Program-made: the position numbers and the translations under genes
The notes under the pieces: model-generated
The model's database searches: none
Told to the model about the DNA's origin: nothing
What the model saw: only the letters and a program-made list of their open reading frames with translations
Shown here: in pieces, positions 1,154 through 45,734 of the stretch
Position numbering within the stretch: the first letter of the stretch is position 1
Layout: each line of letters begins with the position of its first letter
Source of the DNA: a virus
Length of the DNA: 64,000 bases
Strand: one strand, 5' to 3'
Virus record (IMG/VR): IMGVR_UViG_3300028800_000059
Location: 96,001-160,000 of that record

Positions 1154-1908
1154 GGCAGGTCGTGATTGATAGAAGCATAATATTCTTTATATTTTTGATT
1201 TCCTTGTTCAAAAAATTCCTTAGTAACAGAATTTGGATTGCCATCAAGTCTATAATTAAGAGTGTGCAATCCACTGGTGCCCCATGTTTCTGGTTTAGTT
1301 TGTGAGGCAACAATCTGTAAGAACCTACGGTCGGCGCCCCAACCCCAATGCCAATGATGGCCATATTCTTTCAAAAAGGATGTTTTAAAACAGAATGAAG
1401 AAGTGTCCACAAGAAAATTTGGATCATTGGCGAGAGAACACCAAACAGGCCAACGCCCGAGACTTTCGCAATTGTCAGCAAGAAGATAATTGCCTTTTAC
1501 ATCTACAATTTTGCGAAGTGAATATGCCCAATCCCACTTGTTGATTTCGATTGCTTCGATTAAAGATTCAACATGGGTTGGTTCATAGAAATTATCTTCG
1601 TCCAGAAACAACACATAATCATCATCGACCAAATGCGAAAACGCTGCATAGACGCGATGGCCATAGAACCCATGGCCACCTACGTTATTAGCTAAAAGGG
1701 AAACCTCAATTTTTTTGGATGGATTAAGATATTTTTCTTCTTTTGATCCTGACATTACATTTGGAAAACTTGATAAACCATCACACACCAAAAGATGCCG
1801 AAGATTGTCATAAGTTTGAGATTGAACAGAATCGATAGCATCAGCAAGCGTTTCTTTGCCTATAGTTGGTGTAATGACAACAGCCGATTTCAAAATTTTC
1901 AAATCCAT
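1138..1908 (-). CDS. Glycosyltransferase family 2
   Basis: VVITPTIG...SVQSQTY N-terminus, LVCDG, and a DxD motif (LFLDEDN). Confidence 0.85.
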   Translation of the reverse strand: MDLKILKSAVVITPTIGKETLADAIDSVQSQTYDNLRHLLVCDGLSSFPNVMSGSKEEKYLNPSKKIEVSLLANNVGGHGFYGHRVYAAFSHLVDDDYVLFLDEDNFYEPTHVESLIEAIEINKWDWAYSLRKIVDVKGNYLLADNCESLGRWPVWCSLANDPNFLVDTSSFCFKTSFLKEYGHHWHWGWGADRRFLQIVASQTKPETWGTSGLHTLNYRLDGNPNSVTKEFFEQGNQKYKEYYASINHDLPWHQI

Positions 1909-35438: not shown

Positions 35439-36095
35439 CTAGATTGCAGGCAAATCCAAGATATTTTTTTTCTTTTCATTTAATCGTTCACATTTAAATC
35501 CTTTGGCTTGTTTTAAAATACCATCGGCAACTTTTACCATATTACCTTGACCAATATTATAGAGTTTGCAGAAAGCGGTAAGATTGGTGATTTTTTCTTG
35601 TTCGCCTGTTGGGTATGTGATTAACCATTCTCTTTGATTTGCTTTGCGGGCCTGGGATCGTTGATATTCAGAAGAGGTTCCTCCTTTGCGGACTTCGGAA
35701 GCTTTTTCAACTGATTTGAGCCATTTGATTCTTGTTTCTGGATTAGCTTTAGCCCATCGCTCTTTATTTGAAACGGCTATTTTATCTTTGATTTCTTGTG
35801 ACATATGATTGGAAACAAGGGAAGTATTATATCCATCAGGGAGAAGACTATTTTCGGTTCTAATATGAAAAACTTCACGGTCATTGACCTGTTCTAAATT
35901 TAGACATTCTTCTAAAATTTCAAAAGAAAAATTATCAGGTCCAAATTCTCTAAGTGCTTTGCAGAATGGAGTGTTTTTAAATTGAGCATCTTTAAGATGA
36001 TTTGATTTTCTAGTATAAAGATCAGTAGTTTGACCAATGTATTTTTTTCCATTGATTCGATTTTTCCAACAATAAATGTAATATGTCTTTTCCAT
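35439..36095 (-). CDS. GIY-YIG homing endonuclease (Seg-like)
   Basis: YIYCWKNRINGKKYIGQT...R...H...FGPDNFSFEILE...GYN; free-standing downstream of gp23. Confidence 0.92.
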   Translation of the reverse strand: MEKTYYIYCWKNRINGKKYIGQTTDLYTRKSNHLKDAQFKNTPFCKALREFGPDNFSFEILEECLNLEQVNDREVFHIRTENSLLPDGYNTSLVSNHMSQEIKDKIAVSNKERWAKANPETRIKWLKSVEKASEVRKGGTSSEYQRSQARKANQREWLITYPTGEQEKITNLTAFCKLYNIGQGNMVKVADGILKQAKGFKCERLNEKKKNILDLPAI

Positions 36096-37603: not shown

Positions 37604-37611
37604 TATTTATA
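37604..37611 (-). promoter_or_regulatory. T4 late promoter for gp23
   Basis: TATAAATA in the gp22-gp23 spacer. Confidence 0.85.
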
Positions 37612-38854: not shown

Positions 38855-38862
38855 TATTTATA
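38855..38862 (-). promoter_or_regulatory. T4 late promoter for gp22
   Basis: TATAAATA overlapping the gp21 stop codon. Confidence 0.75.
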
Positions 38863-39517
38863 CTTTTGATAACTTTGAGAAAAACGCATCCATTACTTTA
38901 ATAGCGCGAGTTTCATAGTCTTTTTGATTTTTAGACTCGTTCAAATACTTGACGGCCTTGGATTGACTTGCTGGCAACCATTGCTTGTTTTCATAGACCC
39001 ATTCGGCGCCTTCGTAAATGCCATTGACAAAGGCATCCGGGGCGGATGGATCGATTACGATATCGGCTGCTGTCATTAGGCGAAGGTCTGGTTGGACTAT
39101 CGAGGCACCATTTGATTCTTTCAGCGAACCAAGAGCCCGGGAAGAAGCTGCAAGTTGGCCACCGTCATTTAGGATTGCGCGAACGATATTACCCTGTGGA
39201 GTTGTTCCAATTTTGGCTTTGCCAATCCAGTTGTCGCCGTCTTCTTTCAAAGAAGTGATACGGTGGGAAATTCTATCTTCATTGATTTTTGGTGTGTCTG
39301 GATGCCCTAGTTCGCCGTAGGCACGATTACGATTTACGTATTGCGTGATATAACGGGCACATTCATTTCGCAACGTTTCTTTTGGATAGATACGGCCATT
39401 CTTATTGAGTTTATTGGCCTGCATGAAAATGCCGTGGATGTAGTAATCCTTGCCTCCTGTTGAAGTGGCTTCGGTTAGGACTTCGAATTCTTGAATATCT
39501 TCTTTGATTAATAACAT
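38858..39517 (-). CDS. gp21: Prohead protease
   Basis: GIFMQA...NKNGRIYP...AYGELGHP...SHRIT...SSRALGSL...ADIV.DPSAPDAFV.GI.E. Confidence 0.97.
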   Translation of the reverse strand: MLLIKEDIQEFEVLTEATSTGGKDYYIHGIFMQANKLNKNGRIYPKETLRNECARYITQYVNRNRAYGELGHPDTPKINEDRISHRITSLKEDGDNWIGKAKIGTTPQGNIVRAILNDGGQLAASSRALGSLKESNGASIVQPDLRLMTAADIVIDPSAPDAFVNGIYEGAEWVYENKQWLPASQSKAVKYLNESKNQKDYETRAIKVMDAFFSKLSKV

Positions 39518-39528
39518 AGTGGTATTAT

Positions 39529-40155
39529 TTATTCTTTCGCAGTTGCAGGACCGTGGTGTTTTAGGATTGCATTTTTCAAATCTTCATAGGCACTTGCATG
39601 TTGACTAGGTATTTGTGTTAGACGGAGAGTGCCTGATTTTTTTGATTGCGCCATTTTTTCAACATAATTATGTAAATGTTTATCAACTTCTGGATGAAGT
39701 CCATTATAATGTCTAGTATCGTCTCCAGGAATCATGACCTTAACTGGTCCTCGTTTCCCAGCAATTGTATAGGAAGGAGTATGCGTTGGATGTGCTTCGA
39801 TTCCTGCTTGATGAATTCCTGCACGTCCTGGATTATCGAAAGATCGACCATCGGAAGTCTTGAAACGATTTTCCCATTCGACATTGCGCCGACCTGGACC
39901 GGCTTCATTCAAAGAAGATTCATTATAGGTTTTGCGTTTTCCTGTGCCTTTGCAAATTTCACATGTAATGGTTTTCTTCGGTCTTGTGTCGGGGCCTCCT
40001 CCACCATATGGTAAATGAACTTGATATTTTCCTTTACCATTACATTTAGAACATGTCTTGTTTTTTTCATCTTCACCTTTAAGAAATTTATCATGGGCTC
40101 GCGCATTATCGCGTCCTGGAGACATTTCTGTTATATAAGTCTTGAATGATTTCAT
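39529..40155 (-). CDS. Putative internal head protein with capsid-targeting N-terminus and DnaJ-type Zn finger
   Basis: MKSFKTYITE N-terminus, CSKCNGKG/CEICKGTG and an SLNE junction. Confidence 0.55.
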   Translation of the reverse strand: MKSFKTYITEMSPGRDNARAHDKFLKGEDEKNKTCSKCNGKGKYQVHLPYGGGGPDTRPKKTITCEICKGTGKRKTYNESSLNEAGPGRRNVEWENRFKTSDGRSFDNPGRAGIHQAGIEAHPTHTPSYTIAGKRGPVKVMIPGDDTRHYNGLHPEVDKHLHNYVEKMAQSKKSGTLRLTQIPSQHASAYEDLKNAILKHHGPATAKE

Positions 40156-40655
40156 GCTCGCAGCCCTAGTGCCTTTCTTTTCCGTAGTGACCTTTTCAAG
40201 GCCATTCTTGTTCTACTTCTTTTTGATTTTCTTTTTCGGACGGCCTTTCGAGCGCCCATTTTTCTAGCCCGTCTTTCAGCCGAACTCATTCTAACTAATC
40301 GTCCACCGCGTAACGTATAACCTTTCACATTCGATAATCTTTTTCGGCGCTGGATTTTTCCACGGCGAATTCGAATTCTAATGATCTTGATCCGTGGAGC
40401 CTCTTCTAGATTTTCTTCTTTTCTCAAGGCTGGTTCACGATAATCTATAGTTTCATCATATTCAGGATCACTCATTCCAAAGGAATCTTCGTCCACAACA
40501 TATTTCTTTGCCGAGTAGGCCTTCTTGGCTTCTTCGACCTTTTTGGCACAAATCTTTTTTATCTGTTCTTTAAATTCTTCACCAAGTCGAACGCGATTTC
40601 CCGTAATGATATGGTCAAGAAGTTTTTTATTATTGAGACCCGACACCAGTACCAC
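40152..40655 (-). CDS. gp68: Prohead core protein gp68-like
   Basis: Arg/Lys-rich C-terminal half RIRRGKIQRRK...MSSAERRARK...KRSLRKRKALGL; position before gp21; start codon uncertain. Confidence 0.75.
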   Translation of the reverse strand: MVLVSGLNNKKLLDHIITGNRVRLGEEFKEQIKKICAKKVEEAKKAYSAKKYVVDEDSFGMSDPEYDETIDYREPALRKEENLEEAPRIKIIRIRIRRGKIQRRKRLSNVKGYTLRGGRLVRMSSAERRARKMGARKAVRKRKSKRSRTRMALKRSLRKRKALGLRA

Positions 40656-41219: not shown

Positions 41220-41522
41220 TTATTTAGATTTTAGGCTGGTTATAATTTTGGAAACCCTGGTAGATTCAGGCTTATAGGATTCACTTACCGTAGAAATATC
41301 ATCGTCTTTACCCGACACGTTATATGGTACCGAAATATATTTGTCAATTGCGGTTATGTAATAAAGAGCAATTCGTTTTCCTTGAGGAAATGTCCGAATT
41401 GCTGTTCGCCGCATTATAAGGGTTGGTGGAGGATCGCGGTGTGACGTTGATGGTGTGTTATCATCGTCCTTCTCGTTGGCGCTCTCCACCAATTCTGATT
41501 TGAATACTTCAAGGGTTTTCAT
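41220..41522 (-). CDS. Hypothetical protein of the T4-like head cluster
   Basis: DPPP.LIMRR.AIR.FP.G.RIALY motif; TAATG coupling. Confidence 0.65.
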   Translation of the reverse strand: MKTLEVFKSELVESANEKDDDNTPSTSHRDPPPTLIMRRTAIRTFPQGKRIALYYITAIDKYISVPYNVSGKDDDISTVSESYKPESTRVSKIITSLKSK

Positions 41523-42925
41523 TAGGCAATCCTAAATGCTTCCCCGTGTTTTGGATTATCTAATTTGTGTCTTTCGATAGGTGCTGTTGTTGGATGTCTT
41601 TTTCTATGACCAAGAATAGTCGAAGCATCATTCACTTGATCCAAATATTTTGCTTCGGCCTTTGGATCGTGACTTTGTACGGCCTTGGCTGCTTCTCCAG
41701 CATCCTTGATGATATAATGCAATTCAGCATCAGATTTTTTATGATACGGGTGATGTAGAAGGGGAGTGGAATAACGCGCTTCCTTTAAGGCATGTTTTTT
41801 AGCCGACTCTTCATTTGTAAAGAATCCTAATTTACCTTTTTTGTTTTTGGCCGTCCAAAGAGGCTGGGAATGTGGATGAATCTTTGGTGCTTCTTTATAT
41901 TCACCAGGCTTTAATTCGCTCTTGGTTTTGTAATTGATCTTAGAATCTTCGCTGAGTCTATCCGTAGCCTTGGAAATTCCACGGAGTCTCTTTTCGGTTC
42001 GGTCATGTTCTTTATTGGCCAATGTTGGTCTTCCGGCCGTGTGCATCCCGGCCCGCGTTGCGCTCATTTGAATATCAGCCGCAGCACGTTTTACATATGA
42101 GCCAAGAGTCTTCTTTGAAAGCTCGGTTAGAACCGCTTCGCCTAGTTTTACTTTTCCAGACCCGGCACAATTTTTGCAGGTTACATCGCCCATTTCTACT
42201 TCGCCTTTTTTATTGCTAGAAAAGGCATGTGTTTTTCCTGTACCCTGACATGGCCGACAAGTTCCCATAGTTGGCTTTAACATGGACTCAACAACATATT
42301 CCTTGAATGATTTTAGAGCCTTTTGTTTTCCGGTTCCTTCACATGTTTTGCAAAGATAGGCTCTTGGTCCATATATCTTATCGCCTCTTCTACCAGTTCC
42401 CTTGCAATCAGGACATTCTTTTTTATTTTCTTCTTTGCCGCTACTTTCTCCAATGCGATATGGACCAGAATGATGAAAATGATGTGCCCAGGCATTGCCT
42501 TCGGTCTTTCGGACCATATGTTCTGGAACCTTGGCTGATTCGTAGTCGCCATGATCAATCACAACAAAAGGAGAACCATGTGGATCGCCTTTATCGTGTC
42601 GCACAACCAGACCGCTTTTCATTTTTCCTTTGTGCGGGAAGCTTACTTTGTCGCCAGGGTTGAAAGATTCTCCAAATGCCCGATCACCATCACCATTGTT
42701 GGCCTTGATATCGCCCGTGTTTGTTGCTGGCTGGGCATCATCCATTAGCGATGTTTTCTTTGCATAGCTTTTTGTTGGATCAAGTTTTAGTTGTGGCGCT
42801 GGTTTCTCAGGTTCTGGTGCCGCGGCTGGCTTTGAAGGCAGCGCACGATTGATGATAGCATGAAGCTGGGCGCTACGAATAACACCATCGCTTTCGGACA
42901 GAAATTGAGAAAGAGTTTTAGCCAT
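41522..42925 (-). CDS. Modular putative internal head polyprotein
   Basis: MAKTLSQFLSE N-terminus, internal LKSFKEYVVE, two CxxCxGxG pairs, an LSKKTLGSYV module and repeated L/I/V-x-E junctions. Confidence 0.6.
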   Translation of the reverse strand: MAKTLSQFLSESDGVIRSAQLHAIINRALPSKPAAAPEPEKPAPQLKLDPTKSYAKKTSLMDDAQPATNTGDIKANNGDGDRAFGESFNPGDKVSFPHKGKMKSGLVVRHDKGDPHGSPFVVIDHGDYESAKVPEHMVRKTEGNAWAHHFHHSGPYRIGESSGKEENKKECPDCKGTGRRGDKIYGPRAYLCKTCEGTGKQKALKSFKEYVVESMLKPTMGTCRPCQGTGKTHAFSSNKKGEVEMGDVTCKNCAGSGKVKLGEAVLTELSKKTLGSYVKRAAADIQMSATRAGMHTAGRPTLANKEHDRTEKRLRGISKATDRLSEDSKINYKTKSELKPGEYKEAPKIHPHSQPLWTAKNKKGKLGFFTNEESAKKHALKEARYSTPLLHHPYHKKSDAELHYIIKDAGEAAKAVQSHDPKAEAKYLDQVNDASTILGHRKRHPTTAPIERHKLDNPKHGEAFRIA

Positions 42926-43818
42926 TAGGAACTCCAATATGCTTCGGATTCTGGACTTGCGTTATAACGTGCCTGGCGTTGATTAAAATCGTTTCTCCAT
43001 TGTGATTTGTTCATGCCAGTGCCCTTACAAGATTTACATGATTCTATATCGACACCACTGGTATGAACTTTTCCAGTGCCATGACACGCCCGGCAGCCAT
43101 ATTTTACTTTCTTGTCGGCTGCTGGTGTATTCTTGGTTGCGGCTACGACATTTTTAGCTGCCTTTGTTGGTTCTGGCTCGCTCCAACTTACCTTAATTGC
43201 TTCGCCAAAAATCTTCCCGGCAACTTCGACGCGCTTTAGGAGTAGATTGTCCTTGACGTGGGCGCCAATTGCTCCCTGGAAGACCTCCGCGATTGCGGAT
43301 GGGTTTTCCATGATTGCAAAATCAATAATCTGTGCTGCATTGGATGGGGTTTCGTTGTCTGTCATGTTTGTTTCCTTAATATGATTTCGGCCAAGTTTGC
43401 CTGATGCCTTTGATGATCCATAACCACGTCTTACTACATCACCCATCATTTTATCGTTGTTCAATTCACTGCCTTTTTCTCTGTGACGTAATGCTCGACG
43501 TTTCAATGTTTTATTTTGTCCTTTGGTTTTTTCATCCAAAGCAACTCCTTCAGCCATTTGAGTTGGATATAAATGATGAATGTATTTGCCGTGGATCATG
43601 TTCTGATATGGCCGGTGTCTATCTGGAAGAGAACCTTCCTTGTTCCGGGATCTAATGATTTTCTTGGTGTTGGCGTGTTCTTCTTCGGTTCCAAAATGTT
43701 TGGCGAGTAAGGCAATGTTTTCAGAATGATAGTTTTGATCCTCGTTTTTTTCGTATTCAGATTTGATTTTATCAATGGTGGCACCTTTTCGTGCTTCTTC
43801 TAATGTTTCTACAGTCAT
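42925..43818 (-). CDS. Modular prohead core protein containing a gp67-like segment and a Zn finger
   Basis: Immediately after the portal; segment AQIIDFAI.ENPS..AEVF..AI...V...L..KR.EVA..IFGE is gp67-like; CRACHGTG/CKSCKGTG. Confidence 0.55.
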   Translation of the reverse strand: MTVETLEEARKGATIDKIKSEYEKNEDQNYHSENIALLAKHFGTEEEHANTKKIIRSRNKEGSLPDRHRPYQNMIHGKYIHHLYPTQMAEGVALDEKTKGQNKTLKRRALRHREKGSELNNDKMMGDVVRRGYGSSKASGKLGRNHIKETNMTDNETPSNAAQIIDFAIMENPSAIAEVFQGAIGAHVKDNLLLKRVEVAGKIFGEAIKVSWSEPEPTKAAKNVVAATKNTPAADKKVKYGCRACHGTGKVHTSGVDIESCKSCKGTGMNKSQWRNDFNQRQARYNASPESEAYWSS

Positions 43819-43820
43819 GT

Positions 43821-45734
43821 TTATTTCCCTGGTTTCTTTGGTGCCGTGGTAACTTTATTTAGATTTCCCTGAGGTTTCTTTACTGGTAGTGATGCGTTTG
43901 ATTGTTTCGCGGCTCCACTATTCGCTCCTACATCGGCCGTCTTATCGTCAAACGGTGTTGGAGCATCGGCTGAACCTCCTACTGGCCGATCCGGAGTTTC
44001 TCCTTCTTCTGGAGGCATACCAGTTCCCATGCCACCTGGACCAAATCCAGCCGCCTTTTGTTCCTCCATCAATTCTTTTTCTTCTTCAATTTCTTTGTCA
44101 ATTTGCTTGATTTCTTCTTCGTCTTGATGCAGGACGTTCTTACGAATCCATTGCTGTGAGTAATAAACTCCCTTGAATGGTTCGACCAGTGACAACACCG
44201 ACAACCGATTCATCAGTAGTTCGGCTTCTTTCAACTCAGTGAAATTGTTGTCCTTTAAGAAGTCATAGTAAATATTTTCGCGAATTTGGCGCCATTCGGA
44301 AACTGAGCAAATACCCTTCAATGAAAGTTGAATTCGCATAGCTTCATCGAACACAGTCGCAAATCTATTTCTCAGACGAGTAATGAATTTGGAGAACTTA
44401 ACTTCGTCTCGCGTAATTTCTGTGGTACGACCAAGACCCATACCACCATGTTCCTCGCCTTGTTCGACACGGCTATAAGGAACCGAAAGGGCCTTGTAGA
44501 GTTTCTTTTCGAAATACTTTACATCGGCCAATTCGCCTAGATTTTGTCCAGCCGGCAGAGTAGAAATTTCTGTGCCTTTTGAACCTTCACGGCGAGGCAA
44601 CCAGAAGTCTTCCAACATGGCCATGTATTTACGGTCGTTTCGAATTTCGCCAGTGTTGGCATCATAGACCAGTTTGTTTCTATACTTGGTCATTAGATCG
44701 CGAAGATATTGTTCGGCCTTGACCTTTGGAAGTGAACCAACATCCACATAGAAAATTCGCCGTTCTGGCGCACGAGACAACCGATAAATTACGATGGCGT
44801 CTTCGGTCATACGCAACTGATTAAGCGGCTTGATGGCCTTGTCAAGATAAGATAAAACAATTGCGCGGCGAGAGTCCATCAATCCAGATGCCACCGAAAT
44901 AATGCTGTCGGTTGCAATTCGAAGGCCTAGATTAGAATAGGCACCAATGACGCCGCGCTCGTTATAGACGTAGTATTCATTGACGGCTCGAATGATTTCG
45001 GCGCCGCTCTTTGGGTCTTTTGTTTTTTGGACTTCACGGACCTTACGGATACGTCTTGGATCAATGTAGCGAAGTTCCTTGATGCCAGCCTTTGGATTTG
45101 TTTCGTCCAAAATTACGTGGAAGAAAATTCGTCCATCGACATACCAGCGGCGAAACAGTTCATCGCCCATGTTAGAGAAATTCAAAAGCTTTAGAATAAC
45201 GTCGAATTGCTCGTTGATTTTTGTTTTGATGTTGTCTGGTTGTTCAAGGTTGTCCAACATCATTGTAACAGATTTGCCAGTTTCATCATGGACAATGGCT
45301 TCGTTTACAATGTCGTCAATACAAGATTCGCATTCTGGCTGCCGCGCCATTTCACGATATTTCGTGATAAGTTTTACTTCGTCACGGACAATACCTTCAA
45401 GATCAACGAATGTGCCATAGTAGGCACCTGATTGAATAACAACGGCACCGTCGTCATTGGATGGTAGCGCGAATGATTTTGTGTTTCCAGATGCAAGTGT
45501 ATCCTGAGAAACAACTGTGTTTCCGCTCATGCCGGCTGGCTGAATTTGAAAGCCGAACATGTTGAAAAGAGATTCGTTTAGTTTTTGAATTTCCAGAGCC
45601 CGCTGGACAGGATTAGCAGTAGAAAGAGCCGGCCGAAACAATTCTGTGAGAGAATCGTTTGGTAGTGAAATGGTTTCTTTTAGACGGCTCTTTGTAGCAG
45701 CAGGACTCTTTTTCCGTTGCGTTGTTTTGGCCAT
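43821..45734 (-). CDS. gp20: Portal vertex protein
   Basis: IDDIVNEAI, RRWYVDGRI, ELRYIDPRRI, YRLSRAPERRIFYVDVG and MLEDFWLPRREG..GTEI.TLP.GQNLG. Confidence 0.98.
   Translation of the reverse strand: MAKTTQRKKSPAATKSRLKETISLPNDSLTELFRPALSTANPVQRALEIQKLNESLFNMFGFQIQPAGMSGNTVVSQDTLASGNTKSFALPSNDDGAVVIQSGAYYGTFVDLEGIVRDEVKLITKYREMARQPECESCIDDIVNEAIVHDETGKSVTMMLDNLEQPDNIKTKINEQFDVILKLLNFSNMGDELFRRWYVDGRIFFHVILDETNPKAGIKELRYIDPRRIRKVREVQKTKDPKSGAEIIRAVNEYYVYNERGVIGAYSNLGLRIATDSIISVASGLMDSRRAIVLSYLDKAIKPLNQLRMTEDAIVIYRLSRAPERRIFYVDVGSLPKVKAEQYLRDLMTKYRNKLVYDANTGEIRNDRKYMAMLEDFWLPRREGSKGTEISTLPAGQNLGELADVKYFEKKLYKALSVPYSRVEQGEEHGGMGLGRTTEITRDEVKFSKFITRLRNRFATVFDEAMRIQLSLKGICSVSEWRQIRENIYYDFLKDNNFTELKEAELLMNRLSVLSLVEPFKGVYYSQQWIRKNVLHQDEEEIKQIDKEIEEEKELMEEQKAAGFGPGGMGTGMPPEEGETPDRPVGGSADAPTPFDDKTADVGANSGAAKQSNASLPVKKPQGNLNKVTTAPKKPGK

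Follow-up and report, generated by a model that had tools for sequence, protein, structure and literature searches.

A 64,000-nucleotide stretch of DNA (the window), corresponding to positions 96,001 to 160,000 of the 177,318-bp IMG/VR virus record IMGVR_UViG_3300028800_000059, was characterized with respect to a minus-strand gene encoding a basic protein of 467 amino acids (aa). The record comes from an uncultured T4-like phage, whose major capsid protein (MCP) is 61–64% identical to the MCPs of the Pelagibacter phages Mosig (64%) and HTVC008M, Stenotrophomonas phage DLP_6, Methylophilales phage Melnitz and some cyanophages. A preliminary description, made from the letters alone, had proposed that the 467-aa protein is a 'string of beads', split by the prohead protease into small unrelated modules that are packaged and injected, possibly as anti-defence cargo. 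The minus-strand gene order is tail tube, portal, ORF297, the 467-aa protein, ORF100, ORF190, ORF167, ORF208, prohead protease, scaffold homologue and MCP. The gene and its two landmarks are:

43821-45734, minus strand: portal (gp20 homologue; Pfam Portal_T4, 2e-173), the upstream border of the prohead-core interval.
41522-42925, minus strand: the putative polyprotein gene (467 aa, basic), between the T4-type portal and the S77 (gp21-type) protease.
38858-39517, minus strand: prohead protease (gp21 homologue; Pfam Peptidase_S77, 9e-33; phrog_207, 2e-66), the presumed processing enzyme.

The protease gene lies 2 kb downstream of the putative polyprotein gene. In T4, the portal-to-protease interval houses the prohead-core genes 67 and 68. 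The interval spans 4.3 kb here, as compared with 1.5 kb and five small ORFs in the cultured relative Mosig. The ATG of the 467-aa protein overlaps the stop codon of ORF297 (TAATG), with GGAG 8 nt upstream of the start, and the ATG of ORF100 overlaps its stop codon. The T4 late-promoter string TATAAATA was found directly upstream of the MCP and scaffold genes (37604-37611 and 38855-38862, minus strand); it was not enriched in the window, and none lay directly upstream of the putative polyprotein gene. As the portal-to-protease block contains no TATAAATA, it looks like a single transcription unit.

The protein was divided as follows:

42893-42925, minus strand: leader MAKTLSQFLSE (residues 1-11), resembling the T4-type capsid targeting sequence (CTS) and ending L-S-E.
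42668-42892, minus strand: N-terminal segment (residues 12-86), Pro/Ala-rich in part; its last residues, AFGE86, adjoin the barrel.
42446-42667, minus strand: Tudor/SH3-like barrel module (residues 87-160), the barrel at about 92-142 and a disordered tail ending RIGE160.
42287-42445, minus strand: zinc unit 1 (residues 161-213), with C171xxCxGxG and C192xxCxGxG, then the internal CTS-like string.
42287-42316, minus strand: internal CTS-like LKSFKEYVVE (residues 204-213), at the end of the zinc unit 1 segment.
42122-42286, minus strand: zinc unit 2 (residues 214-268), with motifs at C223 and C249; ends KLGE263 and VLTE268.
41948-42121, minus strand: 'LSKKTLGSY' (LSKK) module (residues 269-326), very basic, between VLTE268 and RLSE326.
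41780-41947, minus strand: module of residues 327-382, ending ALKE382, with partial homology (about 360-382) in about 45 matches.
41525-41779, minus strand: 'HPYHxKSDAEL...KYLDQVNDA' (HPYH) helical hairpin (residues 383-467), a core at 392-443 plus a low-confidence tail.

The strings quoted in the preliminary description were all located: MAKTLSQFLSE at 1-11, LKSFKEYVVE at 204-213, FNPGDKVSF at 88-96, LSKKTLGSYV at 269-278 and HPYHKKSDAEL at 392-402. There are four CxxCxGxG motifs, at C171, C192, C223 and C249. Sites of the form [LIVM]xE end at E11, E135, E160, E213, E263, E268, E326 (the RLSE of the preliminary description) and E382. Seven of the eight (E11, E160, E213, E263, E268, E326 and E382) fall at module borders that were set independently by homology and structure models. 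The remaining site, VPE135, falls within the barrel at a non-conserved Glu, replaced in homologues by Ala, Ser or Val.

MAKTLSQFLSE and the T4 CTS, MKTYQEFIAE, are of equal length, with aromatic or hydrophobic residues at the targeting positions and L and E at the processing positions. In the T4 CTS, residues 4 and 7 serve targeting and residues 8 and 10 serve processing (PMC9026906). CTS-like leaders are present on at least five genes of this genome, the others being MKSFKTYITE (ORF208), MKSFKTFIQE, MKSYNSFLKE and MKTYRQFLFE. The last three lie outside the window and away from the head module, at 73288-73701 (minus), 64292-65206 (minus) and 1269-1478 (plus), respectively, in coordinates of the whole genome (G000); judged by their leaders, they are candidates for further head cargo. 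The pattern K[ST][FYL]xx[FYL][ILVM]xE, to which LKSFKEYVVE conforms, is rare at internal positions: 115,260 residues of relatives contained two occurrences, where 0.3 would be expected. Besides LKSFKEYVVE there is AMKTLKDFLEE, whose retained Met suggests a fusion of two leader-bearing genes. The possibility that LKSFKEYVVE marks an internal translation start was ruled out, the L204 codon being CTA.

AlphaFold2 was run with module-specific alignments on two modules, the barrel and HPYH; two MAFFT alignments (A2, A3), built from entire shuffled proteins or from mixed fragments, placed the modules wrongly and were not used for folding. The barrel (alignment A7) was modelled with five strands and a core pLDDT of 74–87. 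Its top Foldseek matches were Tudor, KapB, chromo and CarD-type barrels, the best being 6hq9 (target-normalised TM 0.79), at probability 1.0 and an E-value of only 4e-3. The SH3-like call made earlier for the FNPGDKVSF unit thus agrees with the five-strand model and with Tudor/SH3-type matches, subject to that E-value. The HPYH core was modelled as a helical hairpin with pLDDT above 90, and Foldseek returned only generic helical hairpins for it. Many polar residues of the module (H, Y, H, K, D, E, K, Y, D, Q, N, D, T, R) are invariant, which suggests a site for specific binding. Compared with solved structures, an HPYH profile (alignment A4, 41591-41779, minus strand) weakly resembled the first two helices of eukaryotic ribosomal protein uL22 (E about 1e-3, and 1e-5 for one chain), with KAQKYLEQV aligned to KAEAKYLDQV; this was treated as a probable chance resemblance of helix hairpins. 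In both models the flanks that bear the joints had pLDDT from below 50 to 67, as compared with confident module cores. A whole-chain ESM Atlas model had a pTM of 0.21, and ESM Atlas gave no usable feature or structure match for the protein.

The four CxxCxGxG motifs form two pairs, and single pairs stand alone in ORF208 and ORF297. The zinc units scored below threshold against Pfam DnaJ_CXXCXGXG (27.9 bits versus 32.7) and weakly matched an 'antitermination Q-like' PHROG. Residues 45-86 were covered by one or two homologues only, and the part of this segment that was modelled (77-85) had pLDDT < 50. No separate family was recovered from relatives for residues 327-382. No module could be assigned to a family in Pfam, PHROGs or NCBIfam; the zinc motifs of DnaJ type stayed below threshold, and the PHROGs that were matched are unnamed. 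Of the seven predicted pieces, all but the near-neutral N-terminal segment (pI 6.5) are basic (pI about 8–11).

No full-length homologue was found in two very large protein collections. Parts of the protein recur separately in hundreds of metagenomic phage proteins, in varying orders and copy numbers. The HPYH module (residues 383-443) matched 897 cluster representatives at E<=1e-3, in proteins of 73 to 1445 aa, and the barrel (residues 87-142) and LSKK module (269-326) were likewise matched as single stretches. Barrel and HPYH occur together in both orders (P0002 versus P0004-P0010), and HPYH is also found as free-standing small proteins (73–140 aa) and as tandem pairs. There are 41 homologous copies of the barrel, and 146 copies of the LSKK module were recovered from relatives by jackhmmer, with up to seven per protein. 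Across very different phages the HPYH, LSKK and barrel modules remain 45–80% identical. A tblastn search of 50,697 GenBank phage records with the whole protein and with the HPYH module gave no match. Pfam analysis of 75 homologues identified only CTP_transf_like, DUF5661, HicA_toxin, DUF6321 and DUF3008. The 'string of beads' claim is borne out in that the modules are independent and, in relatives, are reordered, duplicated or encoded alone.

Position in the head block is also shared. Of 15 T4-like IMG/VR loci with a visible portal or protease, 11 have an HPYH-bearing ORF between or beside the two; at one locus (L036) the interval is occupied instead by an LSKK-module polyprotein.

The joints between modules are conserved. 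Among non-redundant LSKK copies, 137/139 are directly preceded by [LIVM]xE, typically as EEVEQ(I/L)DE, and 16/28 non-redundant barrel copies have [LIVM]xE no more than four residues upstream. For HPYH, [LIVM]xE falls 6–12 residues before the conserved His in 91 of 134 contexts, as compared with 12% expected for a seven-position window. At these joints P3 was filled by Leu in 55 contexts, Ile in 19 and Val in 12, and P1' by Ala in 49, Gly in 21 and Ser in 11. The linkers NESLEE and EEVEQIDE recur inside single proteins ahead of unrelated modules (a slash marks the joint in what follows): a 299-aa protein of locus L057 has NESLEE/A three times and EELEE/K once before unrelated modules. The joints at locus L001 are EETELDE/A, EETLDE/I and TQLDE/T, and those at L036 are QLDE/L and AINE/L. 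The preliminary description had suggested that a comparison of homologues might reveal shuffling at x-x-E; module order does vary, and the joints do carry a conserved [LIVM]-x-E. Proteases of the gp21 family cut after the Glu of a three-residue motif (PMC9026906, PMC5694885), and the sequences support the view that the [LIVM]-x-E joints fit this rule. The presumed substrates of the phage's own protease have the motif: the MCP at about residue 58 (NMLSE/S, resembling the propeptide site of gp23), the scaffold homologue at about 20 places (as LxE), and the protease itself at three places near its N-terminus.

In single-module genes, a T4-type CTS is located exactly where the chains have a joint. 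Examples are MNYKKYLVE/barrel (63 aa, L084), MKTFKSFIVE/HPYH (P0223), MKFSEFLKE/HPYH (P0116) and MKHYKDLVSE/LSKK (P0150); stand-alone CTS plus barrel genes are found at both L084 and L089. At L057, a gp67-like prohead-core domain (hhalign 92%) heads a chain of modules with ESLEE joints. Another gene of this locus, also in the portal-protease interval (L057:12093-12581, plus strand), joins a gp67-like core domain (94%) to a HicA-like toxin domain (phrog_353, E 1e-4), and HicA_toxin was present in 3/75 homologous chains. Both the CTS and the gp67-like domain thus precede modules, which points to two core-addressing devices, each followed by L-x-E. The placement of a HicA-like domain behind a gp67-like core domain implies that a toxin may be loaded into the capsid. 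As read from their sequences, the HicA-like and NMNAT-like modules of sister chains show that apparently true effectors or enzymes are able to ride this vehicle.

The LSKK module also occurs in the cultured T4-like phages P-RSM6, P-TIM68, S-SKS1, BUCT-ZZ01 and Cr30. Cyanophage P-RSM6 encodes a 538-aa protein with EEVELQE/LSRSTL. Protein gp064 of Caulobacter phage Cr30 (L102:2756-4804, plus strand; 682 aa) starts MRSKILAE/ISKKTL and contains LSKK modules and a dozen L-x-E joints, with SEEMINE, SENLNE and SENLEE repeated; this phage is cultured and genetically tractable. A separate cytidylyltransferase gene lies 0.4 kb upstream of Cr30 gp064.

Three adjacent proteins of cyanophage S-SCSM1 connect these features with virions. 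ORF91 (L105:2320-3549, plus strand) starts with a perfect T4-type leader, MKSFLQFLKE/A; in its NMNAT-like domain it shares 41% identity with the N-terminal domain of metagenomic carrier proteins that have HPYH and SH3 modules. The neighbouring ORF92 contains an EEVELDE/R joint. ORF93 (69 aa) has a C-terminal CTS-like string, RTFKEFLEYIE. ORF91, ORF92 and ORF93 were all detected by mass spectrometry in CsCl-purified virions, and NMNAT-like proteins recur in cyanophage virion proteomes, for which the authors propose no packaging mechanism (PMC9602691). The MKSFLQFLKE leader would explain the packaging of ORF91. The supplement of that paper has no peptide lists, so that cleavage after the leader is not readable from it (PMC9602691). 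Our literature search found no paper tying a capsid targeting sequence to cyanophage proteins or describing polyproteins of this kind.

Joint type varied with the type of locus. Among non-redundant HPYH joints, LxE was present in 12/12 at loci with T4 markers as compared with 11/25 elsewhere (Fisher 9e-4). Joints lacking L-x-E are Gly-rich, for example GGG-R/M-MPLKGH (where the slash separates alternative residues). The contigs with Gly-rich joints have a different portal family, and their estimated completeness implies genomes of about 58 kb. A search for S77 proteases gave no match in these contigs, which CheckV rates as 28–73% complete, and found 5/5 positive controls (Cr30, P-RSM6, S-SCSM1, L001 and L057). 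The L-x-E loci without visible T4 markers are 7–28% complete fragments of genomes of about 165–350 kb, too partial for an informative S77 search.

The other genes of the block share some of these features:

42925-43818, minus strand: ORF297, the upstream neighbour; starts MTVETLEE/A, with a gp67-like prohead-core domain (residues 159-218), then KIFGE and a zinc unit of two CxxCxGxG motifs.
41220-41522, minus strand: ORF100, the downstream neighbour; CTS-like MKTLEVFKSELVE and a conserved domain.
40152-40655, minus strand: ORF167; an extremely basic Arg/Lys/Ile-rich C-terminal tail of about 75 residues after ENLEE/A; the GTG start is uncertain.
39529-40155, minus strand: ORF208; leader MKSFKTYITE, a zinc unit of two CxxCxGxG motifs, the joint NESSLNE/A and a 125-aa C-terminal module without a family.
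35439-36095, minus strand: a 218-aa ORF just downstream of the MCP gene, beginning with the GIY-YIG-like string YIYCWKNRINGKKYIGQT.

The gp67-like domain of ORF297 was recognized with hhalign against a profile of phrog_1064 members (83.6%, E 8e-6), and its zinc unit by Pfam. Over 45 aa, ORF100 and a gene from the equivalent interval of L057 share 47% identity (E 2e-16). From its leader and joint, ORF208 is seemingly a second, shorter polyprotein in the style of the 467-aa protein. ORF167 gave a weak match to the head-scaffold family phrog_3503. The 218-aa ORF is likely, from its first residues, to be a homing endonuclease inserted in the head module.

On this evidence, the 467-aa protein is probably a cargo polyprotein targeted to the core, from which the S77 protease, by cutting the joints, frees five or six small basic proteins that stay with the DNA. 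The chain would be made late, together with the portal, core proteins and protease. By analogy with T4, the leader MAKTLSQFLSE would then take it into the scaffolding core of the assembling prohead. There the S77 protease would cut after the Glu of [L/I/V]-x-E, as the conserved motifs suggest, removing the leader and splitting the joints at E160, E213, E263/E268, E326 and E382, and possibly at the degenerate FGE86. In T4, processing is blocked when the P1 residue of the CTS is Asp. Five or six basic proteins of about 5–16 kDa would be released: the barrel, two zinc units, the LSKK module, a unit of unassigned family and the HPYH hairpin. Folded pieces of such size would be expected to remain in the head with the DNA, like T4 IPI-III, and to exit at infection.

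Several observations weigh against this interpretation. The number of sites in the protein is not above chance (eight as compared with 4.8 +/- 1.9 in shuffles, P = 0.09); the signal that exceeds chance is the placement of the [LIVM]xE sites, not their number. The N-terminal border of the barrel is the degenerate F-G-E86 rather than [LIVM]xE, and P1' at the LSKK joint is Leu or Ile. The copies of a module share descent, and their counts overstate independence; L-x-E could be inherited within a module, or kept as a recombination joint, rather than be a protease site. About half of the L-x-E-jointed loci are short fragments with no protease in view. Finally, the four CxxCxGxG motifs might form one DnaJ-like domain, in which the internal CTS-like string would be a loop and not a joint. 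The paired CxxCxGxG motifs are indeed like those of the DnaJ cysteine-rich domain and of Anti-TRAP zinc units. Unlike DnaJ, the protein gave no J domain or DnaJ C-terminal domain in Pfam and NCBIfam searches and no NCBIfam match, its Pfam score is sub-threshold, and the two-motif units occur singly in neighbouring genes.

The best surviving alternative, which we consider unlikely, is that the protein is packaged and loses only its leader, the uncut chain acting as one multi-domain internal protein, in effect a small 'polyvalent protein', with linkers that serve as flexible spacers or as points of recombination. Homologous recombination between modules would likewise be favoured by conserved linkers such as EEVEQIDE, the site count does not exceed chance, and polyvalent proteins delivered as whole chains are known (PMC5512222). 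However, the linker motif is shaped like the end of a CTS, and a CTS substitutes for the linker in single-module genes. The invariant part of the linker is [LIVM]-x-E with a small P1', not its length or charge, and the HPYH module has Gly-rich linkers in phages with no S77 protease in view.

Less probable still is that the protein is a scaffold or core protein, cut by the protease for clearance from the head and with no later role. T4 gp22 is cut at many L-x-E sites, and the gene does lie in the interval of T4 core genes 67 and 68, close to ORF297 with its gp67-like domain and ORF167 with its weak scaffold-family match. The distribution of sites argues otherwise: whereas the scaffold homologue has them along its length, the 467-aa protein has them only between folded units of 5–16 kDa, a size that should prevent their escape through the shell. 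Comparison of the protein with the gp67-like profile gave an hhalign probability of 0.2%, PHROG head families gave no match, and its modules are also found in phages of other architecture.

That this is a cytoplasmic multi-domain protein, with zinc fingers and a Tudor-like barrel, which lies in the head block by chance and whose CTS-like strings and L-x-E sites are coincidental, is very improbable: it would draw on the weak zinc-unit match to the 'antitermination Q-like' PHROG, against a position conserved across many T4-like contigs, single-module homologues with CTS-like leaders, modules fused to gp67-like core domains, and related carriers that are virion proteins by mass spectrometry.

The earlier interpretation is supported in part, by the core-interval position, the T4-type CTS, the shuffled modules, the conserved joints and the detection of relatives of the carrier proteins in virions. 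Its anti-defence role found no support, the modules being 45–80% identical across distant phages and the segments having a pI of about 6.5–11. Such strong conservation, together with a neutral-to-basic pI, points to a partner that is itself conserved, be it DNA, the head core or a component of the host, and not to a rapid arms race. We favour an association with DNA or the core over a specific anti-defence function, or one like that of fast-evolving inhibitors such as IPI. We also put forward, more tentatively, that the locus is one instance of a general plug-in system, in which modules flanked by L/I/V-x-Glu are carried in CTS-led or gp67-led chains, freed by the protease and delivered with the DNA. 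The cargo pool of such a system would comprise HicA-like toxins, NMNAT-like enzymes and conserved mini-proteins like the HPYH hairpin; the HPYH-type mini-proteins would take effect as infection begins, on a host or DNA target that is conserved.

The closest known system is that of the T4 internal proteins, which have an N-terminal capsid targeting sequence, are processed by gp21 and are ejected with the DNA. Like the 467-aa protein, IPI, IPII, IPIII and Alt carry a leader of about ten residues, M-K-T/S-aromatic-x-x-aromatic-I/L-x-E. The gp21-family S77 protease, the T4-type portal, scaffold and MCP, the small basic products and a locus highly variable between relatives are also common to both. 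In contrast, T4 internal proteins are single proteins with one leader each, while the present protein has one leader and about seven unrelated modules joined by L-x-E, with a second CTS-like string embedded. It has no sequence similarity to IPI-III, and its gene is between portal and protease, not at the T4 ip loci.

Polyvalent proteins are composed of shuffled unrelated domains, are encoded beside virion genes and are thought to be delivered with the DNA, and their processing into units has been proposed (PMC5512222). The 467-aa protein resembles them in its number of unrelated modules (about seven, against a criterion of two to fifteen) and in the variable architecture of its relatives. It differs in that the modules are tiny (50–85 aa) and that their proposed release is in trans by the prohead protease, not by an internal peptidase domain. 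None of the polyvalent hallmark domains (MPTase or other peptidase, ART, SNF2/helicase, methylases, LPD families) was found by Pfam in the protein or in 75 homologues. In phiKZ, 201phi2-1 and SPN3US, inner-body or ejection proteins have several (S/A/G)-x-E sites cut by gp21-family proteases (PMC9026906, PMC5694885). These giant phages likewise cut head-internal proteins after Glu at a three-residue motif with a homologue of T4 gp21; unlike the sites described here, which separate independently folding, mobile modules, their extra sites shred long propeptides, and the substrates are not homologous. The cyanophage NMNAT-like virion proteins (S-SCSM1 ORF91, S-CBWM1) are related through the CTS-like leader in S-SCSM1 and the 41% domain identity to HPYH and SH3 carriers, whereas the 467-aa protein has no nucleotidyltransferase domain and the published work mentions no leader or joints. 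By sequence, then, the system appears to be a variant of the T4 CTS/internal-protein system, conceptually near the polyvalent proteins, with release by a protease in trans proposed.

T4-type targeting sequences and injected internal proteins are a textbook case, known to us only as single proteins in a few cultured coliphages. If the chain is cut as predicted, a large and abundant group of environmental T4-like phages (relatives of pelagiphages, cyanophages and Cr30) would pack a cocktail of mini-proteins from one gene, and evolution would exchange the pieces at protease sites. This would give a role to hundreds of 'hypothetical' module families, several of them absent from Pfam, and would account for the recurring NMNAT-like enzymes in cyanophage virion proteomes. 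It would also supply a rule, taken from nature, by which T4-type capsids could be designed to carry several foreign proteins, and would raise the question of what job the highly conserved HPYH and LSKK modules do in the phage head or in the newly infected cell.

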